A stretch of 64,000 nt of DNA from positions 10,279 to 74,278 of the forward strand of contig JAFWQQ010000054.1 of the NCBI GenBank assembly GCA_017545165.1, written 5' to 3'. The notes under the pieces are model-generated. The model was not told the DNA's origin. It saw only the letters and a list, made by a program, of their open reading frames with translations, and did not search any database. Shown here piece after piece: positions 41,783-64,000 of the stretch (positions are counted from its first letter, which is position 1; each line of letters starts with the position of its first letter). Made by a program: the position numbers and the translations under genes. The DNA comes from Oscillospiraceae bacterium. GTDB taxonomy: Bacteria; Bacillota; Clostridia; Oscillospirales; Oscillospiraceae.

Positions 41783-41971
41783 TTATTCTTCTGTGACCAC
41801 GATTTTGAATTTGATGACGCCGAGCTTTGTTTCCTTCCCACATTCCGGGCAACAAAGCGGGAAATTCAGCAGAACGGTGTCCTCATAGAGCTTGATATCC
41901 GTTTTCGTCCCACATTTCGGGCACGGCAGCCATAGGGTCTTTTTCTCTTGTTCGTCCATAAACGTCTTCAC
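41783..41971 (-). CDS. cysteine-rich KTR-type small protein
   Basis: 62 aa. CPKCGTKT...CCPECGKETK are two CxxC pairs with the KT(R/K) signature. Confidence 0.65.
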   Translation of the reverse strand: MKTFMDEQEKKTLWLPCPKCGTKTDIKLYEDTVLLNFPLCCPECGKETKLGVIKFKIVVTEE

Positions 41972-41976
41972 CTCCC

Positions 41977-44217
41977 TCAGCCGTAATGTTCTGACATGTA
42001 AAGGCTCAGTTTGCTTTGAATCAGCCTCGCCGCTTCCTCGGCGCTCTCTTTCCCGGCAAGGAAAGCGTTGATTTCGGTTTTCAGCGTGTCGATCACCACA
42101 TCGTCCCGGATCACCAGTCGATCAGTCCCGTAGACCAGCTCGCGCATCACAGCAGCGTCTTTCTCGTTAAAGGATTCATAGTCGTTCACATTGCTCTGCT
42201 GCCGCTGCATACTATTCTCTACTGCTCGCTCAAAGCCAGCGCGTAACACGGGGATACCATCAGTCAGATACGGCTCGTCCTCTCCCTGCATAAAGGTCTT
42301 GACGAAGCGCCAGGCACCGTCTTTGTTTTCACTGGAGGCCAGAACGCCAAGGCTCGTATTGCAGCCAGACGTCCACATCATGCCGTCTCCCAGCATAAGT
42401 TGACCGCTATGTCCCATTCCTTCCGCAGGCAACAGCTTCATGAAGTAGGTTCCTGTACCCGTTGAGCCGGGGAAGCCGAGAACAGCCGCTTCATCCTTGA
42501 AGGTCATGCGTGGACGGTAGCCTGCCTCGGAAGCAAAGTCATAGGAGATCAGCCAGTCGCAGCCGGGACTAAAGAAGGATGCTCCTTCCGGTGAAATGAC
42601 CGGGAGGCGTTTCATCAGCTCCAGCCAGCCGACAAAGGCGGGGCTGTCGAAGCAGCAAGTACCGCTGCTCCGGTCCATAAACTCTGCCGTAGCCGCCCAG
42701 GAGAACAGTATTATCATTTGCTCCTGTGTCATGTAGGGCGCGCCATCTTCCTGCGTGAGCACTTCTATTGCTTTTTCGGGCGTCCATTCCTCCCGGCTGA
42801 TTCCAAGATGCTCTGCGCCAAGTATAGTCAGCAGAGTGAATTTGTCCGTGTACTCATACAGGCCGCCTCTCTCGGTCAGCGCGGAAAAGAGACTGGGAAT
42901 GAAATCTTCCCGGCTGATATCCGGATCAGCGTCGATATAGGGCAGAAGATCGACCAAAAGCTGCCGATCCACCGCGCCGGGCGGGAGCAAGCTGGTGTCC
43001 AGCACATCAATCTCGTTCTCTGTCGCAAGCTGGATCATCAGCTTGTTCCGCTCCGCTTCGTCATGCCACACCATAGGCTTGATGGCAATGCGGTATTCCG
43101 GGTCCGTCTGATTGAAACGCATGATCGCATCCAGCAGCACCTCCGGGCAGGTGTAGTCGGTTTCGCTGTACTCATAGCCCTGGGCCGTGGCATCGGCAAA
43201 GCAGCCCAGCGTCAGCGTCTTCTTCACCGGCACCATGCCGGGACTTACTTTTGTGAGCTTGTTGTTCGCCAAATAGAATAGGTCACCGTTAGAATTCTCC
43301 AGCCCGAGGTAGGCGCTGTAGCCCTGCAGACTCGCGTAATTAAGGGCGACATCCATCCAGTTGAAAATCGGGCTCATGCTTCCGGTGCCCGGGTCGTATT
43401 CCTGCAGCTTCCGCTCCTTTGTGACCAGGATGCGGCCCCGCTGACTGCTGTAAACCGGCTCCCACAGAAGGCCCTCCAAGGGCTTTCCGCATTGGAGCGT
43501 GTCCGGATCAAAAGGGCAATACCCGTCATAGGTGGATAAATAGAGCGCATCGCTGATCCAAATGCATTGTGTAAAACCCATCAACGGCAGATCGAGCTTA
43601 TCGAGTATCTGTGCGTCCCGGTTGATGAGACGCACGGTCTCGTCGTCGTTCAGGATCGCTCGCTCTTTGTCCAGAGCGACAAGCCCGGTCAGATAGGGGT
43701 CGCTGTCATTCCCATTTCTCCAGAAGTCGATGCATGTGCAGGTCTGTGCGCCGCTTTGCGTATCCAGCACGATCAGGAAATAATGCAGCTTGCGAGAGAA
43801 ATCCCGCCTGACCATTTCCTCATCGGAATAGCCCTCCATCAGTCGTACCCAGACGGCGCCATCTGCCACGGAGAATGCTTCGATCCGCGGGTACTTTGCA
43901 TCGCCTGTTTCCAGTTCCCAGCTTTGCCACTCGTCAGCAAGGGTATCATAGCGCAGCACAGCAAATCCGCCGTCTGGCGTCTCTGCATGAAGGTACAGAC
44001 TGTCACCTAAGCTTTGCAGTCCACCAAAGTCTTGATAGCCCTCCGGCATGGGCAACTCGGTAGTGATAAAGCCCTGTTCTGTCTCAGCAGAGATTTGCGG
44101 CTCACCGATCACAATAACCTCGGCATCTTCTCCCAATGTAAGCTTCCCACAGGCGCAGAGCGAGGCAAGCATAGCCAGCGTCAGCAGAAAACCCAATATT
44201 CTGTTTGTTTTACTCAT
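41977..44217 (-). CDS. large lipoprotein: N-terminal beta-rich domain of about 330 aa plus C-terminal extracellular solute-binding-protein-like domain (paralog 1)
   Basis: MSKTNRILGFLLTLAMLASLCACG lipobox. The C-terminal half has SBP-like features (...GFPGSTGTGTYF..., ...AEEAARLIQSKLSLYMSE). Paralogous to 56858-59032 and 62186-64000. Confidence 0.75.
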   Translation of the reverse strand: MSKTNRILGFLLTLAMLASLCACGKLTLGEDAEVIVIGEPQISAETEQGFITTELPMPEGYQDFGGLQSLGDSLYLHAETPDGGFAVLRYDTLADEWQSWELETGDAKYPRIEAFSVADGAVWVRLMEGYSDEEMVRRDFSRKLHYFLIVLDTQSGAQTCTCIDFWRNGNDSDPYLTGLVALDKERAILNDDETVRLINRDAQILDKLDLPLMGFTQCIWISDALYLSTYDGYCPFDPDTLQCGKPLEGLLWEPVYSSQRGRILVTKERKLQEYDPGTGSMSPIFNWMDVALNYASLQGYSAYLGLENSNGDLFYLANNKLTKVSPGMVPVKKTLTLGCFADATAQGYEYSETDYTCPEVLLDAIMRFNQTDPEYRIAIKPMVWHDEAERNKLMIQLATENEIDVLDTSLLPPGAVDRQLLVDLLPYIDADPDISREDFIPSLFSALTERGGLYEYTDKFTLLTILGAEHLGISREEWTPEKAIEVLTQEDGAPYMTQEQMIILFSWAATAEFMDRSSGTCCFDSPAFVGWLELMKRLPVISPEGASFFSPGCDWLISYDFASEAGYRPRMTFKDEAAVLGFPGSTGTGTYFMKLLPAEGMGHSGQLMLGDGMMWTSGCNTSLGVLASSENKDGAWRFVKTFMQGEDEPYLTDGIPVLRAGFERAVENSMQRQQSNVNDYESFNEKDAAVMRELVYGTDRLVIRDDVVIDTLKTEINAFLAGKESAEEAARLIQSKLSLYMSEHYG

Positions 44218-44224
44218 TCTTCTC

Positions 44225-45016
44225 CTATCCGATGTAGATATCACAAAAGTCGTATTTGCCGTCAAAATCCTTCTTGTGGATGGTTCTCCCGGTTGGCTCC
44301 ACTGTCAGTCCACGGGCGATCCCTTCGATGTTCTCCATACTGTCATAGCCCCGGACGCCGATGATCCAGCCTTCCTCCGGATGGAACAGGATCACAAAGT
44401 TCCCGGTGGGGAACTGCGTTTGCTCCCGGTCGATGGCGTGGGTGGCCGTGGCCTGGAACTTGTAGACCTCTACGTCACCCCAGGTCTCACGGGTGATCTC
44501 ACCGGGCTGGAAACCCAGGAGGATCATGGCACCGCCATCCACAAACTGAGGCGCGTACATGATATCTACGACGCAAGAGGGCATATAGACACCGAATTCC
44601 TCGTTGTAGATCTCCCGCCCCTCTACCAGCTTCGTCCTGCCGACGGCCCAGCTCGCAGGATACCAGTAGTCCTCGCTCGGCGACCATGTGACGCGAAAGC
44701 GTACCTCCGGGCATTCTTCCGGACCTTCAAACTCAAAGGCGTATTCTCCCTTCCACTCGACCTGCTGCTCGCCGATGGTGGCCGTATAGGTCTCCCTACT
44801 GCCATGGCGGCTCATTTGAAACCAACCCAGGGCATAAGCGGTCACGGTAAAGAGAGAGACGATGATCGCCGCAACAAGCAAGGTGCTCCACAGCTTGCGG
44901 TGAACGCGGAATGGAGGTGTCGCTTCTTCCGCGTACCCGAGAAAAGCCTCTGCCTTTTTTACGTTTTCCAAACGGATACCCTGCATGGCATCCAACAGCA
45001 GTTCCTCGTTCAGCAT
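44225..45016 (-). CDS. single-pass membrane protein, putative anti-sigma partner (pair 1), unique ectodomain
   Basis: The ATG overlaps the sigma gene stop. Short cytoplasmic N-terminus, TM LWSTLLVAAIIVSLFTVTAYAL, ectodomain of about 200 aa. Confidence 0.6.
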   Translation of the reverse strand: MLNEELLLDAMQGIRLENVKKAEAFLGYAEEATPPFRVHRKLWSTLLVAAIIVSLFTVTAYALGWFQMSRHGSRETYTATIGEQQVEWKGEYAFEFEGPEECPEVRFRVTWSPSEDYWYPASWAVGRTKLVEGREIYNEEFGVYMPSCVVDIMYAPQFVDGGAMILLGFQPGEITRETWGDVEVYKFQATATHAIDREQTQFPTGNFVILFHPEEGWIIGVRGYDSMENIEGIARGLTVEPTGRTIHKKDFDGKYDFCDIYIG

Positions 45017-45567
45017 AAGCCCTCCTCCTGTAGTCTGTCGCGCAGCTTTTTCCGCAGGCGAAACAGGGTGGTTTTCACCTTGCTTTGGGTGCAACCGCTT
45101 TTCTTAGCGATCTCCGCGACGGTTGCGAGAAACCAATAGCGAGAGATAAAGATGATCTGATCCTTCTCCGGCAGCTCATTGACAAAACGGTCGATGGCTT
45201 CTTCCAGTTCTCGGGCTTCTACTTCACGTTCCGGATCTGACTGGCCCATCACGCAATCACTCAGCTCGTCCAGCGCCAGAGGAACCTCACCGCCTCCACG
45301 CTTGAGACTATGTTTCGCGCGGTAGCGATCCAGAGCAAGATGCCGGGTGATCGTCCCCAAAAACCCGGAAAGGATTGCAGGGCGTTCGGTAGGCATCAGA
45401 TTCCATGCTCGAAACCAGGTGTCGTTCACACATTCCTCCGCATCTTCGTTGTCTGTACAGATATTCATGGCGATCCGGTGGCAGTATCTGCCGTACTTCC
45501 GGTCAGTCTCGGATATGGCCTGGTCCGAGCGCTGCCAGTACAGATCAATGATTGCAGTGTCTTCCAT
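45010..45567 (-). CDS. sigma-70 family (ECF-like) RNA polymerase sigma factor, pair 1
   Basis: MEDTAIIDLYWQRSDQAI...EDAEECVNDTWFRAWN (region 2) and ...ATVAEIAKKSGCTQSKVKTTLFRLRKKL (region 4 HTH). AAGGAGG RBS. Confidence 0.85.
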   Translation of the reverse strand: MEDTAIIDLYWQRSDQAISETDRKYGRYCHRIAMNICTDNEDAEECVNDTWFRAWNLMPTERPAILSGFLGTITRHLALDRYRAKHSLKRGGGEVPLALDELSDCVMGQSDPEREVEARELEEAIDRFVNELPEKDQIIFISRYWFLATVAEIAKKSGCTQSKVKTTLFRLRKKLRDRLQEEGLC

Positions 45568-45595
45568 GGGAAAACCTCCTTGAGAGCTCTCATCC

Positions 45596-45626
45596 CTATA
45601 GACGGAAAGCATTTCGACGGGTTACA
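45596..45626 (-). promoter_or_regulatory. ECF-type bipartite promoter motif TGTAACC-N15-CGTCTATAG upstream of sigma gene 1
   Basis: The same motif with the same spacing occurs at 59052-59082 upstream of lipoprotein paralog 2. Confidence 0.5.
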
Positions 45627-45668
45627 AGAAAAGCTGCTATTTCTTCACTGAGTATAGCACATAGATGC

Positions 45669-45702
45669 AAAAAGAGCCCGCCGCAACATTGAGCGGCGGG
45701 CT
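45669..45702 (-). terminator. rho-independent terminator after the blaR1-like gene
   Basis: On the minus strand, AGCCCGCCGC...GCGGCGGGCT is followed by CTTTTT. Confidence 0.7.
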
Positions 45703-45714
45703 ATTTTCATGATG

Positions 45715-48924: not shown

Positions 48925-48953
48925 AAAACCCGCCGTTCATGGTGAGCGGCGGG
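48925..48953 (-). terminator. rho-independent terminator after pair 2
   Basis: On the minus strand, CCCGCCG...CGGCGGG is followed by TTTTG. Confidence 0.55.
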
Positions 48954-48977
48954 CGATTGTGACGTTAACTGCGCTAC

Positions 48978-50036
48978 TTAGCCTATTTCAAAGGTCTTTC
49001 CACCTACGGTGATGCTGACCACCTGATCAAGATTGATCGTGCCGTTTTTGAACAGATACACATCATAGACCGTTCCGTTCCAATATTCCGACCGATCTGC
49101 AGCCAAATTGGTTCGAACACTTCCGTTGGTGAAATGGAGCTGCGCCTCCAGTTCGAGCTTGTCCCTTGCTCTTGCCCATGGGAGCCAGCGAAGGTCATCT
49201 TGTGATGCAACGGGGTAAACGCTTTCCATGTCGTCGTGCGTGACGAGCCATGTGATACCTTCGGCATAAATATCCGCCCCGATAATCTGACCCGCGCCTC
49301 CGGTCTCAGGGTTTTCAAAAGGAACCGGCTCTGGGAACCGAACGCTTATTACGCGTTGCTGTGTTAAGGGGATGGAAACTGGGCCGTAGCTCGCGCTTTC
49401 ATGGATCTGCGCATTATTATCTGTATAGCCCAGCGCAACACGGATTTCCACTGCTTCATTGTCTCTGAACTTTATGTTCGGCAGCGAAGCGCGAAGCGTC
49501 AGCGTTTGTGTTTCGGGATCGTACTCATCCCGATAGAGTGTAAGCAGATTGACAAGAATGCCATAGTATTCCCCGTCCACATAAAGATAGGGCCAGAACA
49601 CACGATCATCCCGGTTCTCCCTGTCTCTCAGATTTTCACGATCCAAACAGGCAATCATGTCTTCTGAAACGGGGCTGATGTTGAAAAACATAATTTGATA
49701 GTCGCCGTTATTCATGGTGGACAGGAGCGTTAGGCCGCCTTCCGCAGCACCCTCCTCCGGCACCGCAAACTCCACATAGTCTGTCACATTGTTTTCATCA
49801 ATCTGCAGTTCATAACGCAACTTTTCCTGCCGCTTCCGATGGATGCTTATGCCGATGGCATAAGCCACGGCGCTCAGGCCGAGGATCAGCGCGGCAGCGA
49901 GGGCAAAGGTGATGATGCGTTTCGCTTGCAGATGCTTTGTCGTCACTCTGCCTTGAAGCATGTCTTCCATGCTCCGCAGATATTCGTCCTGCGCGTCGTT
50001 CAGGTTCGTCAGAAAATCAAGCCTTGTCATAGTCAT
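48978..50036 (-). CDS. single-pass membrane protein, putative anti-sigma partner (pair 2), shared ectodomain family
   Basis: MTMTRLDFLTNLNDAQDEYL..., TM RIITFALAAALILGLSAVAYA. The ectodomain is homologous to 52595-53611 and 61025-62134 (LLSTMNNGDYQ...NISPVSED, YDPETQTLTL). The start overlaps the sigma gene end. Confidence 0.65.
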   Translation of the reverse strand: MTMTRLDFLTNLNDAQDEYLRSMEDMLQGRVTTKHLQAKRIITFALAAALILGLSAVAYAIGISIHRKRQEKLRYELQIDENNVTDYVEFAVPEEGAAEGGLTLLSTMNNGDYQIMFFNISPVSEDMIACLDRENLRDRENRDDRVFWPYLYVDGEYYGILVNLLTLYRDEYDPETQTLTLRASLPNIKFRDNEAVEIRVALGYTDNNAQIHESASYGPVSIPLTQQRVISVRFPEPVPFENPETGGAGQIIGADIYAEGITWLVTHDDMESVYPVASQDDLRWLPWARARDKLELEAQLHFTNGSVRTNLAADRSEYWNGTVYDVYLFKNGTINLDQVVSITVGGKTFEIG

Positions 50037-50583
50037 AGCCCTCCCTGGCAAGAAATACGTTGAATCTTTGTCGGGTACGATAGAGCATGGTCTTGATTTT
50101 ACTGGCTGAAAAACCGGTATGCTTGCTGATCTCTTCGACGGACGCAAAAGCCCAATAGCGGGCCAGAAACACATCCCTCTCCGATTTCGTCAGCGTGTCC
50201 AGAAAGGCCCGGATCAGTTCTCTCAGGGCGGCCGATTCTTCGATTTGATCCGCCCCTTCGTCCGGCAGACAGTCCGAAAGCTCCTCAAAAGCCAGCGTGA
50301 CCTGACCGCCGCCGCGCTTGATGCGGTTTTCGCGGCGAAGGATACTAAGCGCCAGACGGCGTGTAATCTTGCCGAGGAAAACGGAAAGAGGATCGGGGCG
50401 GTGCGGCGGAATCGCGTTCCACGCGCCAAGCCAGGTGTCATTGACGCATTCCTCCGAATCCTCCCGGTTGTTGACGATGCGGTGAGCGACGCTGTAGCAG
50501 TAGTGCCCGTATTTTGAGGCTGTCTCCGGGATGGCCTGTTCCGATCTTTGCCAGTAAAGATCCACGATTGTGGCATCATCCAT
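50017..50583 (-). CDS. sigma-70 family (ECF-like) sigma factor, pair 2
   Basis: MDDATIVDLYWQRSEQAI...EDSEECVNDTWLGAWN. The region 4 HTH is ...SVEEISKHTGFSASKIKTMLYRTRQRF. Confidence 0.85.
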   Translation of the reverse strand: MDDATIVDLYWQRSEQAIPETASKYGHYCYSVAHRIVNNREDSEECVNDTWLGAWNAIPPHRPDPLSVFLGKITRRLALSILRRENRIKRGGGQVTLAFEELSDCLPDEGADQIEESAALRELIRAFLDTLTKSERDVFLARYWAFASVEEISKHTGFSASKIKTMLYRTRQRFNVFLAREGYDYDKA

Positions 50584-50682: not shown

Positions 50683-50721
50683 AAAAACACAGCCCGCCGC
50701 TCCGGGAGGAGGCGGCGGGCT
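50683..50721 (-). terminator. rho-independent terminator after pair 3
   Basis: On the minus strand, AGCCCGCCGC...GCGGCGGGCT is followed by GTGTTTTTCT. Confidence 0.65.
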
Positions 50722-50745
50722 TGGCGTCAATGATTGCTTTTTCGA

Positions 50746-54261: not shown

Positions 54262-54296
54262 CAAGAAACAGCCCGCCGCTCCGGAGAGTGGCGGGC
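54262..54296 (-). terminator. hairpin terminator after the C39-like gene
   Basis: GCCCGCCACTC/GAGCGGCGGGC stem (one mismatch) followed by a T-rich tract on the minus strand. Confidence 0.45.
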
Positions 54297-54311
54297 ACAT
54301 AGTAATGATTC

Positions 54312-55100: not shown

Positions 55101-55118
55101 TCGATTTGCACCCTTCTT

Positions 55119-55439
55119 TCATTCTACCCAATAGCCTTTGCCCCAGGCGGTTTTGACCATGGCAAAGGGCTTGTGGTCGTGCAGCTTTTCCCGGATATGC
55201 CGGACGTGAACCGCCAAGCAGTCGTTGCGTCCGATGGATACCTCGTCTTGCCAGACTGCGTCAGACAGCTCCTGCGCGGGCACAACACGCCCTCTGTTTT
55301 CCATAAGAAAGCGGAGAATGGCAAACTCCGTGTTGGTCAGAGGGACAGGCTCTCCGCGAAGAGTGCATCTTTGCCTGAGTGGATCAAGTGTGATATCTCT
55401 GTGTCGTAAGCTGTTGGTTGAGCAAAGCATGGTATCCAA
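55119..55439 (-). CDS. stand-alone OmpR/PhoB-type winged-helix DNA-binding protein (no receiver domain)
   Basis: 106 aa. ...LTNTEFAILRFLMENRGRVVPAQELSDAVW...VHVRHIREKL...VKTAWGKGYWVE is a Trans_reg_C domain. Confidence 0.8.
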   Translation of the reverse strand: MDTMLCSTNSLRHRDITLDPLRQRCTLRGEPVPLTNTEFAILRFLMENRGRVVPAQELSDAVWQDEVSIGRNDCLAVHVRHIREKLHDHKPFAMVKTAWGKGYWVE

Positions 55440-55454
55440 GCAAAATCATTCCTT

Positions 55455-56786
55455 TCAAAAGGCCGGGGCGAGGATTTGGCTCGGCTCCCCGTCGATCAGG
55501 CAGTCAATCCGAAGAAGTGGATGATAATAGCCTTTCCCGTCAATGCTCCATGTGAGTTCAGCACTCCGACATTCGAGCTGACGGATCTGCGCAGCATATG
55601 TTCCATCCAGGATAGAGAAGCGACCTTGTCGCAGCGCTTTTTCCAGCCCTGCTGTATCCAAGGCAGCACAGTCCGAGCCACGCTGGAGAGCGTTGACCTT
55701 CATTGATATCTTAGTGATGCTGTCTGCACCGCTTGTTACCTGGATCATCCCATCATAGAGCATGCCGCTTGATGGGACGAAGTGCCAGACAAGACTGTTT
55801 TCTCCCACTTCACTTGGCTCCGGGAACGAATAACCCGCATGTTCCAGTACCTGCAAAGCCGTATCTGCTGCGGTCCCCTCTGTAGGCAGCCCGTTCGGAA
55901 TGTACAGATCAAACTGACCGGTGTAATAGTACCAAAGGTACTCGTTAGAGCCTTCAGCCCGGTAGACCGCAAGATCGTCATAGGCATCCGAAGAGTCCGC
56001 TTTCCTTGCCCGGCCGAGCGCTTCAAGCAGGCGATCGGCAGTCGCTTCTGCCTCGCTTCTCGGCGGGCTGAAAAGCTGATAGACGGTCACGCTCGCGGGC
56101 AGCTGCCCGTCCAGTGCCTCAAGCTTAACCTCCTGCGGCTTCCCGTGTGTATGGTCAGGGAAATCCTGCCGCACGAATCCATAGGGGCGCGCAGACAGCC
56201 ATAGCAGTCCGGCAGCAAGGACAGCTACAGGCAGTATCGCTGCGAAGGCTGAAGTCAGCACCGGCTTTCGGCTCTTGAGGTTTGTATAGCACTCTCCGAG
56301 GCATAATCCCCAGATCGCACCGAGGCTGTTTGCGAGCAGGTCGTCGATGTCCATCGCGCCAAGCCGTGCAACGTACTGTGTGCATTCGATCAGCGAAGGA
56401 AACAGAATCGCCAGCAAATAGAGCCGCTTTCCCTTCTTTATGCCCTGCGCGTGCCAAACGAGAAGCAATCCAAGCGGAACAAAGGCAAGAATATTGAGGG
56501 CTAGCTGGATTGCCGCATGCCTGTCAGCGCTGGTAAGGGCCTCATGGAGCGCTTCAAACGGATGTATATTACTTGCATGAATCAAAGGCGAGCGGTTGCC
56601 GAACACAACAAGTGCCAGAATGCAAAGATACCACAGTGTCAAAAACCACTTGATTCGAAAAGACTTATCCAGTTCTCGCTTTTTCCAAGGCCGCAGCACA
56701 AAAAGAACATAAAGCAGTCCGGACAGCAGCAGAGAAAGGAGGCCGTATTTCCCGCCGATCTGCAAATAGTGTTTCAAAGAAGCCAT
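55455..56786 (-). CDS. VanZ-like membrane protein fused to an extracytoplasmic domain of about 250 aa
   Basis: The N-terminal 190 aa have the VanZ pattern (NILAFVPLGLLL...DIDDLLANSLGAIWG). A further TM segment and an uncharacterised domain follow. GGGGTGAAGG RBS before 56786. Confidence 0.7.
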   Translation of the reverse strand: MASLKHYLQIGGKYGLLSLLLSGLLYVLFVLRPWKKRELDKSFRIKWFLTLWYLCILALVVFGNRSPLIHASNIHPFEALHEALTSADRHAAIQLALNILAFVPLGLLLVWHAQGIKKGKRLYLLAILFPSLIECTQYVARLGAMDIDDLLANSLGAIWGLCLGECYTNLKSRKPVLTSAFAAILPVAVLAAGLLWLSARPYGFVRQDFPDHTHGKPQEVKLEALDGQLPASVTVYQLFSPPRSEAEATADRLLEALGRARKADSSDAYDDLAVYRAEGSNEYLWYYYTGQFDLYIPNGLPTEGTAADTALQVLEHAGYSFPEPSEVGENSLVWHFVPSSGMLYDGMIQVTSGADSITKISMKVNALQRGSDCAALDTAGLEKALRQGRFSILDGTYAAQIRQLECRSAELTWSIDGKGYYHPLLRIDCLIDGEPSQILAPAF

Positions 56787-56857
56787 ACCTTCACCCCTTT
56801 TTCTGCTGTATTTTACCATATCTGGCACGAGACTGTCTCTTAAGCTTTCTTAACGGC

Positions 56858-59032
56858 TCAGCCCTGTTCGGCGACGTAGAGCCTTGCGCTGCTTTGGATA
56901 CGGTCGGCTGCCTCGTCAAGGCTGATCTGGCCGCCGAAGTAGGCCCGCGCGTTCGTTTTGATCATGTCAAGCAGCGTTTCGTCGCAGCGCACCAGCTTGT
57001 CCGTCGCATACACAAGCTCCCGCAGTCTTTGCGCGTCGTCGGCGTTGAAGTTATCAAAGCCCTGCACGATCTGATCCGAGATGCTTGCCTGCAAAGCGGC
57101 CTCAAAGCTGCTTTGCAGCACGGGAATTCCGTTCATGATATCACTCTCCGCGGCGTTTGTCAGCAGCAGACGGATGAGCTGCCACGCGCCGTTCGGGTGC
57201 TGAGAGGAAGCCATAATGCCGAGGCGCGTCGCCGCGCCTGCCGTTGTCCGAAATTGATCCGGGCCGGTTCCGAGCTGGATGAAATAACAGCCGCTGCCGC
57301 TCGTGCCGGGGAAGCCGCAATAAACGTAATCGTCCTGCAGCGCCATGCGGATCGTCGCCCCGGTGTTCGCGGCAAGATCCCAGCTCATATAGAGAAGCTG
57401 CGGATCTTCAGTATATTCGGCACTGTAAGGCGCGTCCTTCACGAGCTGCAACCATGCCTTGAATTCCGGGCTGTCGAAGGAACTGCTGCCGTTTTCCCAA
57501 TCCACGAACTCCGCCGTGGCCATCTTGGCCAGCATGTCCAGAAGAACCTCCCGGTCCTGCCATGAGGGGAAAAGCTGCCAGTTGTCCGGCATTTCCCGCA
57601 TCTGCTCTGTCGCTTCCTCCACCGTCCAGGCGTCGCGTCCTGGGAAGCGATCCGGGTGCGCGGCAAAGCCGATGAGAGTGACCCGCGCAGTCAGTTCATA
57701 GAGCCCGCCGTTTTTCAGCATGGCGTTCAGCAGGGGCTGAATGAAATCCTCCCGGCTCAGGTCAGGGTCTGCATCAAGATACGGAAGCATATCCAGGAGC
57801 AGGCCACTGTCCAGACTGAGCTCCGGCAGTCCGGCGGTGTCCAGAATGTCGATGCCGCTGCCTGTGGCAAGCTCAATGAGGCGCTTGTCTCGCTGTCCTT
57901 CAGCGTCGAAATCGAGCTTCCGGATCTCCACCTTGTAGTCGGGATTCGTATTGTTGAAGCGGATCACGGCGTCCAGCAGGTCACGGGAAATGCCGGTTTC
58001 CGGATCTATCAAAAAGCCAGCCTGCGCACCGCCAAAGCTGCCCAGAACGAGCGTCTGCCGCTCCTTGATCATTCCTTGCGTAACTTTGATCACGGATTTT
58101 CCATCCATGACAGGATAGAAAAAGTCCCCGGCGCTGTTTTCAAACAGCGCATACCCACCCTTGCTGGCATAGCTCAATGCCACGTCGATCCAGCGGAAAA
58201 GCCGTTCCTTTACCGCACCGCTCTCCGGGTCGATCTCACAGACCGTACCATCCACGCTGTTGAGCCAGCGGCCGTTTTCACTGAAAAAGCTGCCTGCAAA
58301 CTCCAGCTCCCGCGCGGGACTGAAGCTCAGGGTTTCAGGGGAAAAGCTGCAGGTGCCCACGACATAGTTCTGCCCTTCCATGTGCCCCGTGTGATACAGG
58401 CGCTCCGTTCCGGAGCGTAGGCTGCTTTGAAAGACGGTGCCCTGCAGATCCAACTTCTGCTGCAGATTCATCTCTCGGTCTACGACATAGCCCTGTTCAC
58501 CGGCGCAGAGGATCGCCCGGTTTTCATCTAAAGCAAGGATTCCCGAAAAATACAGACCGGAAGCCTCTGTTGACTCGCCACCCGAAAATGGGATCACCTG
58601 TACGCTGCCGGTGCTGCCCTGCGTTCTGTCGCAGAAGTACATCCAATATTGAGACTCCATCGACTGCTCGGTTCGGCTCTCCAACAGCGCCCAGACCGCA
58701 TTGCCCGAGACGGACAGACCACGCAGCGCAACGGAACCGGGGATCGCGTTGCTGTCATAGGTAAGCAGCGTCCAATCGTCGTTTACGGTATCATAGCAGC
58801 CGATCAGGGCTTCGCCCGTATAGCCGGAGAGGAACAGCGTGTCTCCTTGCGCATCCCATTCGCTGTTTACCCTGCCGAGCTCTTTGGGGACGGAGATTTC
58901 TGAGGGGATGTAGCCGGGAACGGCGTTCCCCTCGACGACCAGTTCGGCAGGCTGTTCCGTCTGCTTGCCGCAGGCGGAAAGGGAGAGTATCATCAGGTAT
59001 GCAAGAAGCATGCAAATCAGTTTTTTGCTCAT
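56858..59032 (-). CDS. large lipoprotein, beta-rich N-domain plus SBP-like C-domain (paralog 2)
   Basis: MSKKLICMLLAYLMILSLSACG lipobox. Shares DPDYKVEIRK..IELATGSGIDILDT..DMLPYLDADPDLSREDFIQPL..GGLYELT with paralogs 1 and 3. Confidence 0.75.
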   Translation of the reverse strand: MSKKLICMLLAYLMILSLSACGKQTEQPAELVVEGNAVPGYIPSEISVPKELGRVNSEWDAQGDTLFLSGYTGEALIGCYDTVNDDWTLLTYDSNAIPGSVALRGLSVSGNAVWALLESRTEQSMESQYWMYFCDRTQGSTGSVQVIPFSGGESTEASGLYFSGILALDENRAILCAGEQGYVVDREMNLQQKLDLQGTVFQSSLRSGTERLYHTGHMEGQNYVVGTCSFSPETLSFSPARELEFAGSFFSENGRWLNSVDGTVCEIDPESGAVKERLFRWIDVALSYASKGGYALFENSAGDFFYPVMDGKSVIKVTQGMIKERQTLVLGSFGGAQAGFLIDPETGISRDLLDAVIRFNNTNPDYKVEIRKLDFDAEGQRDKRLIELATGSGIDILDTAGLPELSLDSGLLLDMLPYLDADPDLSREDFIQPLLNAMLKNGGLYELTARVTLIGFAAHPDRFPGRDAWTVEEATEQMREMPDNWQLFPSWQDREVLLDMLAKMATAEFVDWENGSSSFDSPEFKAWLQLVKDAPYSAEYTEDPQLLYMSWDLAANTGATIRMALQDDYVYCGFPGTSGSGCYFIQLGTGPDQFRTTAGAATRLGIMASSQHPNGAWQLIRLLLTNAAESDIMNGIPVLQSSFEAALQASISDQIVQGFDNFNADDAQRLRELVYATDKLVRCDETLLDMIKTNARAYFGGQISLDEAADRIQSSARLYVAEQG

Positions 59033-59051: not shown

Positions 59052-59082
59052 CTATAAACGCTTTTTTCGTGCTTTGGTTACA
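59052..59082 (-). promoter_or_regulatory. ECF-type bipartite motif TGTAACC-N15-CGTTTATAG upstream of lipoprotein paralog 2
   Basis: Same half-sites and the same 15-nt spacing as 45596-45626. Lies 20 nt upstream of the ATG at 59032. Confidence 0.5.
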
Positions 59083-59096
59083 AATCATCTGTCGCT

Positions 59097-60344
59097 TCAG
59101 TCATGCTCGGCCACATACAGCCGGATCTTCGACTCCATCTGCATGACCGTCTCATCCAGATTGCGCTGTCCTGAAAAGTAGGCTTCGGCCAGCGGCAATA
59201 ATACGGTCAGAAGTCCTTCGTGTTTGAAGCTAGAAACGTCGATCCCATAGACGATTTCCCGCAGGCGCTGTGCGTCCTGCTCGGTGATCGGATTGTCCGT
59301 GTCTTCCAGTCCCTTTTGCAGATGTGCCTCGAAGCGATCCTTCAGCACGGGGAAATCGTTGAAGCCATCCGGCGCGTCCCGGCCAAAGATGTCGCCGTAA
59401 TAGGCGAAGAGAGCGTAGCGCATGAAGCGCCAGGCTTCCTCCTTGTGCGTGCTGTCAGCCAGCATACCGGTGTTAAAGAAACCCGCTCCCTGCATGACAT
59501 AAAAGCCGCTGCTTTTCTGCGCGGGCCAGCCGACCAGCTCGGCGTCATCGGAGATATAGGTGCGAATGGCCGGAAGCCGTCCGCAGGCGCCGATCTCTTC
59601 GTGCCGGACACCCAGCCCCGGCGCGTCCTTGCAAAACTGAAGCCATCCTCTCAGAACCGCTGTATCCACTTCATTTCCGTTCACCACGTCGTTTTCGATC
59701 ACCGGGAAAGCCTCACGGAAGTTCTGCATAGCACTGGGAACCGGAAAAATGTCGTCCACATCAGGGGCCGGGCCAAGAGCTCTTTCATAATCCTCAAAGC
59801 TCAAGCCCGACTGTGCCGCGCCATCATAATCCAGTACCGCACTGAGGAAGAAAGATGGCGTGAGCGTATAGAGCTTGCCGTCCTCCATCATGGCCTCCAG
59901 TACGGCGGGGATGAAGTCATCTGCGGAAAGCTCCGGGTCGCGTTCCATAAAAGGTAACAAATCTTCCAGATACAGCGACTGCTCTCCGCCCAGCGCGAGA
60001 GAAACCGTGTCGATCATATCCGGTCCCTGCCCGGCCATAATCTCCACGCGCAGCTTGTCCCAGGACCCGAATTCGTATACGCGGGTTTCCACCCGGCAGT
60101 CAGGGCATTGCTCGTTGAACTGCCGGATCATGGTGTACAGCGGCCCGTCCATATAAGCGGTCGCCAGCGTGATGACGGTTTTTTCTTCCTCCGGCAAAGG
60201 CGCAGGGCGCTCGGTTTCTTCCGCCGCTGCCGGAGCGGTTTCACCAGAGTTTGCCGCGACTGGCTTCTCGCTCCGCTTGCCGCAGGCGGCCAATGAGAGT
60301 ATCATGGAAAGCGAAAGAATCAGACATAGGATCTTTCTGGTCAT
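59097..60344 (-). CDS. SBP-like lipoprotein (415 aa, lacks the N-terminal beta-rich domain)
   Basis: MTRKILCLILSLSMILSLAACG lipobox. More distant homology to the C-domains of the large lipoproteins (...DLLPFMERDPELSADDFIPAVLEAM..GKLYTLT). Confidence 0.75.
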   Translation of the reverse strand: MTRKILCLILSLSMILSLAACGKRSEKPVAANSGETAPAAAEETERPAPLPEEEKTVITLATAYMDGPLYTMIRQFNEQCPDCRVETRVYEFGSWDKLRVEIMAGQGPDMIDTVSLALGGEQSLYLEDLLPFMERDPELSADDFIPAVLEAMMEDGKLYTLTPSFFLSAVLDYDGAAQSGLSFEDYERALGPAPDVDDIFPVPSAMQNFREAFPVIENDVVNGNEVDTAVLRGWLQFCKDAPGLGVRHEEIGACGRLPAIRTYISDDAELVGWPAQKSSGFYVMQGAGFFNTGMLADSTHKEEAWRFMRYALFAYYGDIFGRDAPDGFNDFPVLKDRFEAHLQKGLEDTDNPITEQDAQRLREIVYGIDVSSFKHEGLLTVLLPLAEAYFSGQRNLDETVMQMESKIRLYVAEHD

Positions 60345-60366
60345 GTTTACGACCTCCTTTCACGCA

Positions 60367-60450
60367 TAAGAACGCGGCATCAGAATGCTTTGTCGCACGA
60401 AAAATTTTTATTTTTCCTGTGCGACAAACTGCCGGGTGCGCGCGTTCTTA
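60367..60450. promoter_or_regulatory. mirror-symmetric divergent promoter region: GTGCGACAAA-N14-CGTTCTTA in both orientations
   Basis: Plus strand 60419-60450, minus strand 60398-60367. The two GTGCGACAAA boxes also form an 8-10 bp inverted repeat around an AT-rich 20-mer. Confidence 0.5.
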
Positions 60451-60486
60451 ATAGTGAGAGATCATATAGAAAGAGGGAATCTCAAG

Positions 60487-61044
60487 TTGAAAGAAGCAAG
60501 GCTACTGCGGCGCTTACAAAATGGAGAGAGCGCAGCCTTGGGCGAGATCATGAAGTTGTATACTCCATATGTCGCTGCCATCGTGAGGAATATCATCGAC
60601 CCGCCCCTGCAGGAAGAGGATGTAGAGGAGGTCGTAGCCGATGTGTATTTATCTCTTTGGAAGAATGCCGCTGATATAGAAGACGGCAAGCTCCGCCCCT
60701 GGCTCGCCGCCGTGACACGAAACCGCGCCAAAGATAAGCTCCGCGCGCTGCATCTGAATCTTCCGTTGGAGGATGATGCCCTGGAGCTGATCGCGGATGG
60801 ACCCGAAACCGAGGCCGTACGGCAGGAGGCCATTCAGGCGACAAAGGAGGCGGTAGACTCTCTCGGAGAGCCGGATCGCTCCATTTTCCTGCGATACTAT
60901 TACCTGTATCAAAAGACCGATGAGATCGCCGCAGCCATGGGCTTAAAGCCGTCCATCGTCCGGAACCGGCTCTCCCGGGGTCGGGAAAAGCTGAAAACAC
61001 GTTTGGTGGAAAGGGGGCTTTGCTATGAAGCTGAGTATTGCTGA
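60487..61044 (+). CDS. ECF sigma-70 family sigma factor, pair 5 (TTG start)
   Basis: (M)KEARLLRRLQNGESAALGEIMKLYTPYV...EDVEEVVADVYLSLW (region 2) and ...TDEIAAAMGLKPSIVRNRLSRGREKL (region 4). AGAGGGA RBS 7 nt before the TTG. Confidence 0.8.
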   Translation: MKEARLLRRLQNGESAALGEIMKLYTPYVAAIVRNIIDPPLQEEDVEEVVADVYLSLWKNAADIEDGKLRPWLAAVTRNRAKDKLRALHLNLPLEDDALELIADGPETEAVRQEAIQATKEAVDSLGEPDRSIFLRYYYLYQKTDEIAAAMGLKPSIVRNRLSRGREKLKTRLVERGLCYEAEYC

Positions 61045-62134
61045 TCTGGTGGAAAACTGCTCTGCGGAGGAACTCATGATCGGAAAAGAAGAAAGAGAAC
61101 TGACCGAGCGCGTCAAAGCGCGGGTGCTGGCCGAAATCGAAGCAGAAAGCAAAGCAGCCAAGCCGAAGAAAGAAATCGTGCATATCCGTTCCAGACGGGT
61201 CATACCCTTCGCCTTTGTCGCTGCGCTGCTTCTTTCTCTTGGCATCGTTGCCTATGCGATCAGCAGCATCCACGCGGCGCGGCAGCAGGAGCTGCGCGCA
61301 GAGAGGAATCTGAACGAGCACCAAACGGAAAGCTATGTGGAATATGAGACCCCCGATGAATCTACGCCTGGCGTCGTGCTGCTCTCGACCATCAACGATG
61401 GAGAGTTTCAGGAGGTCTATGTCAATGTGTCCCCGGTAACGGAGGAAGAGATTGCGGGTTACCCTGAGCAGCCAATCTCTTTCCGCTGGCAGATCGTGGG
61501 CTCAGATCTGAAAGGCTTTGCCGATCCCTGGATCAGACCGGGCAGCTCAGCACACACACCGGAGGCGCTCCGGGCCCTCGTTCAGCGGGATGCCTATGAT
61601 GCCGAGACACAGACGCTGACGCTTTGCTGCCATGTTCTCTCAGAATCGCTGGCTGCCTTTCTGGAAGACTGCGGCTCGGACACAGCCGAGCTTGAGTTGT
61701 TTCTGGCTGAGGACTATATCGCCACAAGGAGCTTTGGCAGCGTTTCGCTGACGCCGACAGACGAGGATCGCCGCAGCTTCGAATTCGGAAGCGTAAGCTG
61801 GAAAGACGATGAAAGCGGCAAGGAGGTCGAGCTGATCGGTCTGGAGCTCACACCGGTCAGCAGTGTCTGGCATCTTCGCTATCCGGCGGCTGAAGCTGTT
61901 TATACGGGCAGCGATCTTGAACTGCAGAAAGCCTGGCTGCGGGTGGAAGACCGCATCTGTATGAACGCGCGGATCATCTTTTCCGACGGCAGCAGCATGG
62001 TTACCAATGGTGCGCTGAGCGCCCGCTATGAAGATGGTGTGGTCAGCCTGTATACCGGATGGCCGCGCGCGATTGACATTACCGATGTACAGCAGATCGT
62101 CCTTGGTGATCTGGTTTTGTGGGAAAACAAATGA
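61025..62134 (+). CDS. single-pass membrane protein, putative anti-sigma partner (pair 5), shared ectodomain family
   Basis: The start overlaps the sigma gene end. TM VIPFAFVAALLLSLGIVAYA. The ectodomain carries LLSTINDGEFQ...NVSPVTEE and YDAETQTLTL, like pairs 2 and 4. Confidence 0.65.
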   Translation: MKLSIADLVENCSAEELMIGKEERELTERVKARVLAEIEAESKAAKPKKEIVHIRSRRVIPFAFVAALLLSLGIVAYAISSIHAARQQELRAERNLNEHQTESYVEYETPDESTPGVVLLSTINDGEFQEVYVNVSPVTEEEIAGYPEQPISFRWQIVGSDLKGFADPWIRPGSSAHTPEALRALVQRDAYDAETQTLTLCCHVLSESLAAFLEDCGSDTAELELFLAEDYIATRSFGSVSLTPTDEDRRSFEFGSVSWKDDESGKEVELIGLELTPVSSVWHLRYPAAEAVYTGSDLELQKAWLRVEDRICMNARIIFSDGSSMVTNGALSARYEDGVVSLYTGWPRAIDITDVQQIVLGDLVLWENK

Positions 62135-62147
62135 TGTAACGATGCAA

Positions 62148-62177
62148 CAAGCGGGAGCGATTCGTCGCTCCCGCTTG
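62148..62177. terminator. 13-bp hairpin between convergent genes
   Basis: CAAGCGGGAGCGA-ttcg-TCGCTCCCGCTTG. No clear T-run. Confidence 0.45.
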
Positions 62178-62185
62178 GACATTGG

Positions 62186-64000
62186 TCAACTATATTGTTC
62201 TGCCAAATACAGACTCAAACGACTTTGAATCTGTTTTGCGGCTTCCTCGGCAGACTTCTGTCCATCAAGAAAAGCGTTGATTTCGGACTGCATCACCAGC
62301 AGAATCTGCTTGTCTGTATGGATTAGCTTTGTGGCACCGTAGACCTGTTCACGCAGGCGTTGAGCGTCGTCGGCATTGAACATGGCAAGTCCCTGGAATT
62401 CTCCATTATTGGAAAGCGATGAGTCGATAACCCGTTCAAACCGTTCCCGGGACGCAGGAATGCCAAAGGAGATCGATTGATCTTCTTCGCTTTCGCTCAT
62501 CATTAGTGTTCGGACAAAGCGCCATGCGCCCTCTTGATGCTTGCTGGAAGCCATAATACCGATTCGGGTATTCTGTCCGACGGTGCTCCGGCTCTCTCCC
62601 GCACTGCTTCCTAACTTCAGCAAAAAGCTCCCCGTTCCTTCCGTGCTCGGAAAACCAGCGACAGCATAATCGCTTTGAAATGGGTAGCGGGAGCTGAAAC
62701 CGGCATCCGAGGCAAAATCATAGCAAAAAGCCATGAGTTTTTCTTCATCTTGCGGACTTTTATCATCCAGAAGTTCTTTGAGCAGACGAAGCCAATCCTG
62801 AAATGCACGGCTGTCAAAAGAGCAGCATGCGTTTTCCCAATCAATAAACTCTGCCGTTGCTGCCCAGCTTACAACAGTCACAATCATTTCTCTGTTCATG
62901 CTTTGCCAAAGCGGAGCATATTCAGGGTGCTGAGCAATTAATTCTTCGATTTGATTGACGGTCCAGCTTTCTCGTCCGGGGAACATCTCAGGACGTGCCA
63001 GCAGCGTCACCAGCGTAAATTTGTCGGTGTATTCATAGAGTCCGCCATGCTTCATCATGGCCTGAAGCAGCGAGGGAATAAAGTCCTCACGGCTGATGGT
63101 TTCGTCAGCATCGATCATGGGTAGCATGTCTGCAAGGAGACCAGCGTCCAGCGCGCCGTCAGGCAAAAAACTTGTGTCCAAAATGTCAATATCCTCGGAG
63201 GTGGCAAGCTCAATCAGCAGACGATCGCGCTCACTTTCGTTGTTGTACAGTAGGGGCTGGATTTCAATGCGGTATTCTGGGTCGCTGTTGTTAAAACGAA
63301 TGATCGAATCCCGAAGCTTTAAGCTCATGGAATAGGGAGGCGCACCGGCTTGTTGAAAATACTCGTAACTCTCCGCTCCGGTATCTCCAAAGCAGGCAAG
63401 AGTCAAAACTTTTTTGACCGGAACCATAGCGGGTGAAACTTTGACAAGACCATTCGATGTGATGTAAAAGAGTTCGCCCTTTGAGTTCTCAAGCCCAAAG
63501 GGACTGCCCATACTGCTGTAGCTCAGAGCAACATCCATCCAATCAAAACGCTCCGTCTCATTGCCTGTTGCCGGATTTACTTCAATGAGCCTGTTTTGCT
63601 TGTCATAAAGGAAATGCCCGTCGTTGCTGGAATAAACATGGCTTGCGTTCAACTCAAAGGCTTGTCCGAGCTGAAATGTTTCCAAGTCTAGCGGTGCAGC
63701 GCCTTCCTCGGTCATTAAGTATAATTGATCGTTTACCCGGAATCGAGGAAGACCGCCCAGGTCGGAAACATTTGGCTGATCTAAAACACTTAGCTTAGGG
63801 TCAATGAGATAGCAGGTTTCAGGTGTAGTCAAGAGAGCTTTCTCTCTATCAAGCCCGAGAAGGCTCATGCTACTTGTCTCGTTGTTGCTGCTGCTGCCTT
63901 CAAAGGGAATGCGTGTGCAACGCATTTCTCCGTCCTCTCGGCTACCCCACAGAATATAATGTCCAAGGTTTTCCAGAAACTTTCCGCTGCTTGCATCTTC
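62186..64000 (-). CDS. large lipoprotein family, paralog 3 (N-terminus beyond the right edge)
   Basis: The frame stays open to position 64000 (...EDASSGKFLENLGHYILWGSREDGEMRCTR...). Shares DPEYRIEIQP..IELATSEDIDILDT..DMLPMIDADETISREDFIPSL..GGLYEYTDKFTL with paralog 1. Confidence 0.75.
   Translation of the reverse strand, partial: EDASSGKFLENLGHYILWGSREDGEMRCTRIPFEGSSSNNETSSMSLLGLDREKALLTTPETCYLIDPKLSVLDQPNVSDLGGLPRFRVNDQLYLMTEEGAAPLDLETFQLGQAFELNASHVYSSNDGHFLYDKQNRLIEVNPATGNETERFDWMDVALSYSSMGSPFGLENSKGELFYITSNGLVKVSPAMVPVKKVLTLACFGDTGAESYEYFQQAGAPPYSMSLKLRDSIIRFNNSDPEYRIEIQPLLYNNESERDRLLIELATSEDIDILDTSFLPDGALDAGLLADMLPMIDADETISREDFIPSLLQAMMKHGGLYEYTDKFTLVTLLARPEMFPGRESWTVNQIEELIAQHPEYAPLWQSMNREMIVTVVSWAATAEFIDWENACCSFDSRAFQDWLRLLKELLDDKSPQDEEKLMAFCYDFASDAGFSSRYPFQSDYAVAGFPSTEGTGSFLLKLGSSAGESRSTVGQNTRIGIMASSKHQEGAWRFVRTLMMSESEEDQSISFGIPASRERFERVIDSSLSNNGEFQGLAMFNADDAQRLREQVYGATKLIHTDKQILLVMQSEINAFLDGQKSAEEAAKQIQSRLSLYLAEQYS

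Follow-up and report, generated by a model that had tools for sequence, protein, structure and literature searches.

ECF sigma factor/membrane-partner pairs and orphan sugar-binding-fold lipoproteins in a putative genomic island of an uncultured gut Oscillospiraceae bacterium

Overview

A stretch of 64,000 nucleotides (nt) from contig JAFWQQ010000054.1, referred to here as the window, belongs to an uncultured gut Oscillospiraceae bacterium that is close to the metagenome-assembled genome (MAG) UBA3758. According to its open reading frame (ORF) map, the window carries five pairs of an extracytoplasmic function (ECF) sigma factor and a membrane partner (sig1-par1 to sig5-par5), together with four lipoprotein genes, lip1 to lip4 (Table 1). 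The explanation that is best supported, with a probability of roughly 60%, is that the pairs are ECF switches of the sigmaV/RsiV kind, that the lipoproteins are their main regulon and thus their outputs, and that feedback from the lipoproteins to the anti-sigma factor is possible. In other genomes of the lineage, a sigma gene, a putative anti-sigma gene of the par1 type and a gene for a lipoprotein with a predicted propeller and a substrate-binding protein (SBP) fold, often accompanied by a gene for a small Cys-rich KTR protein, constitute a conserved module, organized as a single operon in some loci and as divergent genes with mirrored promoters in others.

Sigma factors and their membrane partners

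The five sigma-like proteins are ECF-type sigma factors, as a first-pass annotation of the window had read from the sequence. In an hmmscan-type check against Pfam, Sigma70_r2 was passed by all five and Sigma70_r4_2 by sig1, sig2 and sig5, whereas sig3 and sig4 narrowly missed the latter's cut-off; sig1, sig2 and sig5, which were all those scored, exceeded the NCBIfam sigma70-ECF model TIGR02937. The combination of sigma2 and sigma4 domains without sigma3 or sigma1.1, in 185-188 amino acids (aa), is that of ECF (group 4) factors, which measure about 170-200 aa. Pairwise identity among the five ranges from 28 to 60%, with sig3 and sig4 at 60%, and the best score against the NCBIfam SigV equivalog model was 30 bits versus a cut-off of 190. 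These genes number five within 22 kb, whereas the outer flanks of related loci, although enriched in sigma genes, have only about 0.035 per 2 kb.

Each sigma gene overlaps the gene of a single-pass membrane protein by 4-20 nt, an arrangement that had been annotated before and holds throughout. Hydropathy predicts one transmembrane (TM) segment at residues ~40-65 of each partner, and in all five pairs the partner gene is coupled directly 3′ of the sigma gene, as is typical of RsiV-type anti-sigma factors. The earlier statement that one TM segment is common to all partners held in part. The segment KRIITFALAAALIL.LG..AYA is almost identical in par2, par3 and par4, and the TM cassettes of par3 and par4 are identical; par5 (RVIPFAFVAALLLSLGIVAYA) is an approximate match, and par1 (KLWSTLLVAAIIVSLFTVTAYA) has little in common with the others beyond TAYA. 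When profiles of the par1 type and the par2/4/5 type were aligned to each other, the alignment covered the N-terminus and the TM segment up to AYAxG (probability 94.7%, E 5.6e-8) and stopped there, with nothing beyond. The partners therefore appear to share one N-terminal module under three unrelated ectodomain types, namely those of par1, of par3 and of par2/4/5; the par2 ectodomain is 33% identical to those of par4 and par5.

The same cassette occurs widely in the family. Over the N-terminal ~65 residues (MxRExLxxxIGxIDDRFIAEA ... KKRIITFALAAALILALGVTAYA), it is conserved at 60-98% identity among more than 90 Oscillospiraceae proteins whose ectodomains are unrelated. Two of the homologs that share it, P0161 and P0211, score as DUF4179 over residues 40-131/147, that is, over the TM segment and the juxtamembrane region. 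The TM segment resembles a signal peptide, with a basic n-region (KKR), a hydrophobic core and a small-x-small c-region. AYA stands at its outer end in all five partners, and AYA, GYA or GFA in the homologs, which gives a predicted A-x-A site for signal peptidase, the site-1 protease. RsiV and RsiP are cut by signal peptidase at such sites, and the site of RsiV lies in DUF4179 and is exposed upon ligand binding (PMC6066255, PMC8844934).

The AlphaFold2 model of par4 (predicted local distance difference test score, pLDDT, 81.6) comprises short N-terminal helices, a TM helix at 34-65 and a short helix at 68-79, which is followed by two beta-sandwich domains. In Foldseek, this model gave weak matches only, the best being 3fbq (E 5.5e-4), and no match to RsiV or to a lysozyme-binding protein. 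A sequence search of the PDB with the partner profile yielded no match, and Pfam domains were found in none of the five partners; par5 has a weak match to an NCBIfam 'anti-sigma factor' model (E 1.4e-5), which is below the cut-off.

A related locus from another MAG, L006, illustrates how such proteins may be reshaped. At 3984-5775 it contains sig4 and the N-terminus of par4 joined directly to the ectodomain of par3; compared with 54248-53439 and 51787-50748 of the window, the par4 ectodomain, sig3 and the par3 N-terminus are gone. This suggests that the hybrid anti-sigma gene arose by recombination across the near-identical N-terminus/TM cassette, and that the cassette may serve as a handle for ectodomain swapping.

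The pairs differ in their surroundings. In pair 1, the genes sig1, par1, lip1 and KTR constitute one tight operon, with gaps of about 5-8 nt, that is closed by a terminator hairpin; this order had been noted before and stands. On the other hand, each of sig2/par2, sig3/par3 and sig4/par4 is preceded by a promoter region of its own and flanked on either side by a GC-rich hairpin terminator, and these pairs are predicted to be self-contained two-gene units.

Orphan lipoproteins and the KTR protein

The lipoproteins are most likely orphan sugar-binding proteins of the CUT1 type that are homologous to CbpC of C. thermocellum. Identities among lip1 to lip4 are 30-47%; lip1 shares 38-47% with lip2 and lip4, and lip3 is 30-37% identical to the C-terminal halves of lip1, lip2 and lip4. 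Lipoboxes are LCAC in lip1, LSAC in lip2 and LAAC in lip3; almost every sequence of alignment A1 has the lipobox Cys, although this Cys is not among the invariant columns listed for A1. The family profile matches CbpC by sequence (E 2.7e-19), and the AlphaFold2 model of lip2, computed with 15 family members (pLDDT 86, predicted template modelling score 0.85), shows a two-lobed SBP fold and has as its top Foldseek match CbpC (7x0o, E 1.4e-15), a member of the CUT1/MalE-type sugar-binding proteins. The earlier reading of the C-terminal halves as SBP-like is thereby borne out. Scores against the Pfam SBP models differ among the four: lip3 reaches 27.9 bits for SBP_bac_8 (cut-off 27), lip2 reaches 23 (cut-off 26), and lip1 and lip4 have no match.

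The N-terminal domain has no Pfam match, and Foldseek with the whole lip2 model returned SBP matches only. In the model this domain consists of 24 strands, which suggests a propeller with six groups of four strands. Among 1.84 billion representative proteins, the domain was found in 46 cluster representatives, mostly of ~700-760 aa and with the domain at the N-terminus, and the predicted all-beta domain is confined to this narrow lipoprotein family. Genome matches of the family all come from MAGs of uncultured Oscillospiraceae/Clostridiales from gut and rumen, UBA3758 being the closest.

It was also observed that a large lipoprotein gene is often paired in tandem with another lipoprotein-like gene of weak similarity (hidden Markov model, HMM, scores of ~60-200), as lip2 is with lip3. 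Such tandems are found in L015, L026, L058, L059, L065, L066, L070, L076, L079 and L124; the order in L124 is sigma, partner, a 714-aa protein and a 728-aa lipoprotein.

The KTR protein carries no signal peptide. Its gene lies at or just 3′ of lipoprotein-family genes in at least eight other loci of unrelated context (Table 1), and from this recurrence KTR looks like a fourth component of the module.

Promoter motifs connecting sigma and lipoprotein genes

Boxes with AAC at -35 and CGT at -10 are the signature of Firmicutes ECF promoters, and a T-tract adjoining the -35 box is typical of sigmaV/ECF30 promoters (PMC5758882). The autoregulatory AAC/CGT arrangement was found in the sig1 promoter and in the sig5 promoter (GCGACAAA-N13-GCGTTCTTA), and candidates for sig2-4 were recognized by eye only; many of the related promoters show a T-tract next to the -35 box. 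The pattern TGTAACC-N15-CGTYTATAG has exactly two matches in the window, upstream of sig1 and lip2, and none in 100 shuffles. Likewise, GTGCGACAAA-N13-GCGTTCTTA has exactly two matches in the window, one on each strand of the lip3-sig5 intergenic region; shuffles predict none, and the orthologous back-to-back layout is also present in L007 and L009. The link of two lipoprotein genes to sigma genes by promoter-like motifs, proposed in the first-pass annotation, is thus upheld, and the motifs recur in other genomes.

Divergent sigma/lipoprotein pairs elsewhere have mirrored promoters, whose boxes vary between loci and agree within a pair: the box match is 12.45/14 within pairs versus 11.14 between motif classes (Mann-Whitney p = 2e-4). 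Over all loci, AAC-N16-20-CGTY occurs upstream of 27/74 lipoprotein genes versus 20/659 other genes. A naive search for bipartite motifs common to the upstream regions of sigma and lipoprotein genes performed no better than shuffled pairings; it was abandoned in favor of split-intergenic comparisons because overlapping divergent regions match themselves as palindromes. Together, the promoter motifs place the lipoprotein genes in the predicted regulons of these sigma factors, and transcription of the lipoprotein gene is most likely driven by the sigma factor.

Gene neighborhoods in other genomes

The neighborhood survey comprised 76 genome loci centered on lipoprotein homologs, of which 68 were decidable and 8 had flanks that were too short. 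A sigma gene of the clade lies no more than 2 kb upstream of the lipoprotein gene in 24 of the 68 decidable loci, co-directionally in the order sigma, partner, lipoprotein in 12 and divergently in the other 12. Two further loci have a sigma gene downstream only, and 42 have none; the background in the outer flanks is about 0.035 sigma genes per 2 kb.

An adjacent permease gene was found in 0/76 loci by phmmer, with the window's own two permeases as the positive control; permease homologs were seen only in L064 and L072, ~5-7 kb away and on the opposite strand. In addition, BPD_transp_1 was detected in none of six contigs with precomputed Pfam annotation, two of which show the sigma-partner-lipoprotein order. 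Permeases are therefore not the usual neighbors of these genes; had they been, this would, according to the first-pass annotation, have spoken against its hypothesis. None of the checkable outcomes by which that annotation would have been refuted was observed.

Within the window itself, the absence of permease and ATPase genes of ATP-binding cassette (ABC) transporters from the island, reported earlier, agrees with the searches made. The only importer genes are those of a canonical operon for a LacI regulator, an SBP and two permeases at 26863-31730 (permeases 29528-31730), which lies outside the low-GC (guanine plus cytosine) segment and ends at ~31.7 kb. Further permease copies in the window were not detected by phmmer with these two permeases as queries, a method used instead of an EAA-motif regular expression that had caught one of the two real permeases. 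No ABC ATPase candidate was found in the island by a Walker-A/LSGGQ pattern, which was applied without a positive control.

With regard to the partners, both the lipoprotein-centered and the partner-centered surveys show that those beside large lipoproteins have the par1 ectodomain type (263-292 aa) or are unclassifiable. For the partner-centered scan, a closer subset (A4) replaced the par1-type alignment as a whole (A3), which was too diverse. A sigma gene stands directly 5′ of every par1-type gene with enough upstream sequence, and a large lipoprotein gene accompanies close par1-type relatives (HMM >250, enough flank) in 9/9 metagenome loci. More distant par1-type partners lack a large lipoprotein, and one of them has a weakly related protein of ~680 aa downstream. 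Partners of the par2, par3, par4 or par5 type were not found beside large lipoproteins in these surveys, with the partial exception of par5 beside the short lip3. The earlier picture of a uniform array of five pairs is consequently given up: only the par1 type is conserved beside large lipoproteins, and pairs 2-4 are interleaved with them merely by position.

Proposed mechanism and alternative explanations

A general scheme can be drawn for the sigmaV/RsiV-like reading. Briefly, a cytoplasmic N-terminal helix of the partner would bind the sigma factor and be followed by the signal-peptide-like TM segment and a variable ectodomain. A signal on the ectodomain would expose the A-x-A motif to signal peptidase (site 1), and an intramembrane site-2 protease would then free the sigma factor, which would transcribe its own operon and genes with a matching AAC...CGT promoter. 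The regulon would include lip1, co-transcribed with sig1-par1, as well as lip2 via the sig1-type promoter and lip3 via the sig5 promoter. The lipoproteins would be outputs, namely glycan-binding proteins of the cell surface that are induced, and may also inform the anti-sigma factor; pairs 2-4 would be independent two-gene sensors with targets elsewhere.

Several observations weigh against this scheme. None of the five partners reaches a Pfam/NCBIfam threshold for an anti-sigma domain or for DUF4179 (PF13786; none at E ≤ 0.01), and their cytoplasmic part of ~25 conserved residues is unlike the four-helix class I anti-sigma domain. The partners are putative anti-sigma factors for which we infer, from sequence, sigma binding by the N-terminal helix, cleavage at AYA and dependence on a site-2 protease. 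The propeller assignment comes from a strand count and not from a structural match, and a sugar ligand is deduced from the fold and distant homology only. Moreover, a nearby sigma gene is lacking for ~60% of the lipoprotein homologs, and the simple promoter pattern is matched by only 36-41% of the homologs, which together indicate that ECF control is frequent in the family and may not extend to the whole of it.

The first-pass annotation had favored a more direct role for the lipoproteins, in which the lipoprotein captures a ligand and signals through the membrane partner so that the sigma factor is released. Spelled out for the module, an SBP-like lipoprotein with its ligand would touch the par1-type ectodomain and thereby set off or prevent the site-1 cut in the anti-sigma factor. 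Such a co-sensor appears possible and is considered rather doubtful. It would account for the finding that par1-type or unclassifiable partners are the sole ones beside large lipoproteins and that close par1-type relatives always have one; a shared operon or mirrored promoters would ensure co-expression, and the lack of a nearby permease makes a non-transport role of the SBP fold plausible. There is also a precedent in PbpP with RsiP, in which a separate ligand-binding protein gates signal-peptidase cleavage (PMC8844934). However, contact between lipoprotein and partner is purely hypothetical here, and an exclusive association can also follow from a module that duplicates as a unit. One sigma factor appears to drive more than one lipoprotein (both lip1 and lip2 are under sig1-type control), most of the family is encoded at a distance from any pair, which fits outputs better than one-to-one co-receptors, and distant par1-type partners occur without a large lipoprotein. 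A combined version, according to which the lipoprotein is a ligand-loaded co-receptor that gates AYA cleavage via the par1-type ectodomain, KTR is a fourth, cytoplasmic component and the cassette is a recombination handle, is likewise tentative.

The lipoproteins might instead serve ordinary ABC import by docking on a CUT1 permease whose genes lie elsewhere, in which case the sigma factors would do no more than regulate nutrient uptake genes. The CUT1/MalE-type C-domain with its sequence-level homology to CbpC would suit this role, and the LacI-SBP-two-permease operon shows that the organism uses such systems. It is nevertheless unlikely, given that no adjacent permease was seen in the survey, that the extra N-domain of ~300 aa is unique to the family, and that the canonical SBP of the window has no relation to the lip proteins detectable by phmmer; in general, sharing of a permease by many distant orphan SBPs is unusual among CUT1 systems. 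An ordinary ABC operon was also considered as an assignment for the lipoprotein genes and was rejected. Finally, an island that merely accumulated unrelated sensory and lipoprotein genes could be imagined from the low-GC segment that opens with two recombinases, from the gene fragments in it (a truncated response regulator and a truncated DAO oxidoreductase), and from pairs 2-4, which have no visible lipoprotein link. Chance adjacency of this kind is very improbable, as the sigma-partner-lipoprotein order is kept across many non-syntenic contexts and the common promoter motifs exceed chance expectation; it is contradicted for pair 1, pair 5, lip2 and lip3, and could apply at most to where pairs 2-4 are placed.

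Conserved gene neighborhood is the main basis on which ECF sigma groups are delimited. By this standard, the module would be a Firmicutes ECF group with a conserved orphan lipoprotein of sugar-binding fold, itself bearing a lineage-specific all-beta domain, and a small zinc-ribbon neighbor, and would offer a way to approach environmental sensing in the abundant uncultured Oscillospiraceae of gut and rumen. The near-identical TM cassette on many ectodomains suggests a simple evolutionary route for sensor rewiring. If the co-sensor proposal were true, anti-sigma factors would join kinases and chemoreceptors as recipients of signals from SBPs, and the pathway would be the first of the ECF sigma type to depend on an SBP.

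The island and its other genes

The coordinates of the features are collected in Table 1. The left end of the putative island lies near 33.2 kb, where tyrosine recombinases and a Bro-N gene are found and the GC content falls from ~0.6 to ~0.5; the right end is beyond the window. The segment 33307-37807 contains the two recombinases and Bro-N, together with a small putative excisionase-like ORF between the recombinases, whose N-terminus was read by eye. A truncated DAO oxidoreductase fragment is located at 39543-40172.

Table 1. Features of the window, with KTR genes of other loci (L numbers, in the coordinates of each locus) in the last rows
Feature	Position	Strand	Description
sig1	45010-45567	-	185 aa; Sigma70_r2, r4_2 above cut-off, Sigma70_ECF; TIGR02937 75.9 bits
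par1	44225-45016	-	263 aa; 7-nt overlap with sig1; one TM helix ending TAYALG
sig2	50017-50583	-	188 aa; Pfam r2, r4_2, Sigma70_ECF
par2	48978-50036	-	352 aa; 20-nt overlap with sig2; TM segment KRIITFALAAALILGLSAVAYA; ectodomain of par2/4/5 type
sig3	51879-52436	-	185 aa; Sigma70_r2 E 1e-11; r4_2 20.9 bits, below cut-off of 25.7
par3	50746-51882	-	378 aa; 4-nt ATGA overlap with sig3; ectodomain type of its own
sig4	53608-54165	-	185 aa; Sigma70_r2 above cut-off; r4_2 24.6 bits, below 25.7
par4	52595-53611	-	338 aa; 4-nt overlap with sig4
sig5	60487-61044	+	185 aa; Pfam r2, r4_2 above cut-off; TIGR02937 71.3 bits
par5	61025-62134	+	369 aa; 20-nt overlap with sig5
lip1	41977-44217	-	746 aa; lipobox LASLCAC; predicted all-beta N-domain and CUT1-like SBP C-domain; member of alignment A1
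lip2	56858-59032	-	724 aa; predicted all-beta ~37-332 and MalE/CbpC-like SBP fold ~345-724
lip3	59097-60344	-	415 aa; SBP domain only, without N-domain
lip4	62186-64000	-	N-terminus cut by window end; 47% identical to lip1, 43% to lip2
Cys-rich KTR zinc-ribbon protein	41783-41959	-	58 aa; PF14205 E 8.1e-15, 54.8 bits versus cut-off of 25.5
Intrinsic terminator hairpin and T-run	41736-41774	-	GAGCCTGTTGCCC...GGGCAACAGGCTC TTTTT; read directly; closes pair-1 operon
sig1 promoter, ECF-type	45596-45626	-	TGTAACC-N15-CGTCTATAG; 29 nt 5′ of sig1 start codon
lip2 promoter, sig1-type	59052-59082	-	TGTAACC-N15-CGTTTATAG; 20 nt 5′ of lip2 start codon
sig5 promoter, ECF-type	60419-60450	+	GTGCGACAAA-N13-GCGTTCTTA, upstream of sig5
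lip3 promoter, same motif as sig5	60367-60398	-	back-to-back with sig5 promoter
Two tyrosine recombinases	33307-34482, 34831-35739		start of low-GC segment
GC-rich hairpins	~45675-45702, ~48940-48970, ~50700-50735, ~54270-54300		upstream of sig1, blaI, sig2, sig4
KTR gene, L008	10176-10367
KTR gene, L056	3129-3410
KTR gene, L071	3619-4008
KTR gene, L086	42-233
KTR gene, L098	4923-5045
KTR gene, L091	2468-2701		~460 nt downstream
KTR gene, L082	8764-8952		after weakly related member
KTR gene, L040			fused read-through ORF

Between pair 1 and pair 2, the segment 45715-48836 on the minus strand encodes a BlaI-type repressor and a BlaR1-like protein of 920 aa, the latter with a Peptidase_M56 domain and a C-terminal region of ~640 aa without a Pfam match. 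These genes represent another membrane proteolytic signaling module in the island. Very similar GC-rich hairpins (GCCCGCCGC...GCGGCGGGC) followed by a T-run precede sig1, blaI, sig2 and sig4, and the likeness of these flanking hairpins suggests that the signaling units were duplicated together with their terminators.

Three genes lie directly 3′ of lip2 on the minus strand (54312-56828), in a segment that is missing from L006. They encode a VanZ-family membrane protein of 457 aa, separated from lip2 by a 29-nt gap, a 106-aa fragment with Trans_reg_C only (a truncated OmpR-type regulator), and a weakly Peptidase_C39-like protein.

UBA3758 is syntenic with 62188-55291 of the window at 96% identity and alignable to the end of par5. 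The lipoprotein gene that it carries at the lip4 position (L007, 2635-4845) cannot be aligned to 62186-64000 at the DNA level, which points to cassette replacement at this site. Upstream of this gene, UBA3758 has a divergent pair of a sigma gene and a par1-type partner gene, and a sixth sigma/partner pair may lie just past the right edge of the window.

Comparison with known systems

An ECF group with a conserved SBP-fold lipoprotein neighbor was not found in full-text literature searches or in the main text of the ECF classification, and within these sources the sigma/par1-type/lipoprotein module is previously undescribed. The nearest entry in that text is ECF258, in which DUF4179 anti-sigma factors are associated with ABC transporters; its context is different because there is no transporter here.

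Accessory lipoproteins are known from several envelope sensors, such as LpqB (which contains a beta-propeller) with MtrAB, CseA with sigE-cseABC, and RseB with RseA. They resemble the module in that a membrane signaling pair is accompanied by a gene for a lipoprotein or a secreted protein; the partner systems differ, a comparison made by description only. The CUT1/MalE SBPs, with CbpC (7x0o) as an example, are alike in the fold of the C-domain, in sequence homology and in the N-terminal lipobox, and differ from the lipoproteins described here, which have no adjacent permease or ATPase, carry the extra all-beta N-domain and are preceded by ECF-type promoters.

The SigI/RsgI systems of cellulolytic clostridia, with which the array had been compared earlier, likewise consist of paralogous pairs with differing ectodomains and carbohydrate-related extracellular targets. 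However, the sigma factors here are ECF factors with r2 and r4 only, and the targets are lipoproteins instead of cellulosomal enzymes. Membership in SigI/RsgI was rejected, as the best 25 NCBIfam matches of the sigma factors belong to ECF or sigma-70 families with no SigI model among them, and the partners have no Pfam match, including the RsgI N-terminal domain. Given the ECF sigma factors and the RsiV/DUF4179-like cassette with its A-x-A motif, the comparison is kept solely as an analogy.

The closest known systems are sigmaV-RsiV and, for the presence of a third sensing protein, sigmaP-RsiP-PbpP. In sigmaV-RsiV (B. subtilis, C. difficile, E. faecalis; ECF30), an ECF sigma factor is also co-transcribed with a single-pass anti-sigma factor that has an A-x-A site and a short helix after the TM segment; relatives of the cassette described here score as DUF4179. 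Both have an autoregulated AAC...CGT promoter, often with a T-tract by the -35 box, and an output gene in the operon (sigV-rsiV-oatA-yrhK versus sig1-par1-lip1-KTR). They differ in that the five partners stay below the DUF4179 threshold and lack a Pfam domain, and in that the predicted outputs are SBP-like lipoproteins and not cell-wall-modifying enzymes. In the sigmaP-RsiP system of B. thuringiensis, a separate protein, PbpP, senses the ligand and is needed for the signal-peptidase cleavage of RsiP (PMC8844934). The sensor there is a penicillin-binding protein, whereas here it would be an SBP-fold lipoprotein, and RsiP is without DUF4179; the three-protein logic is the same and provides a precedent for reading the lipoprotein as a co-sensor.

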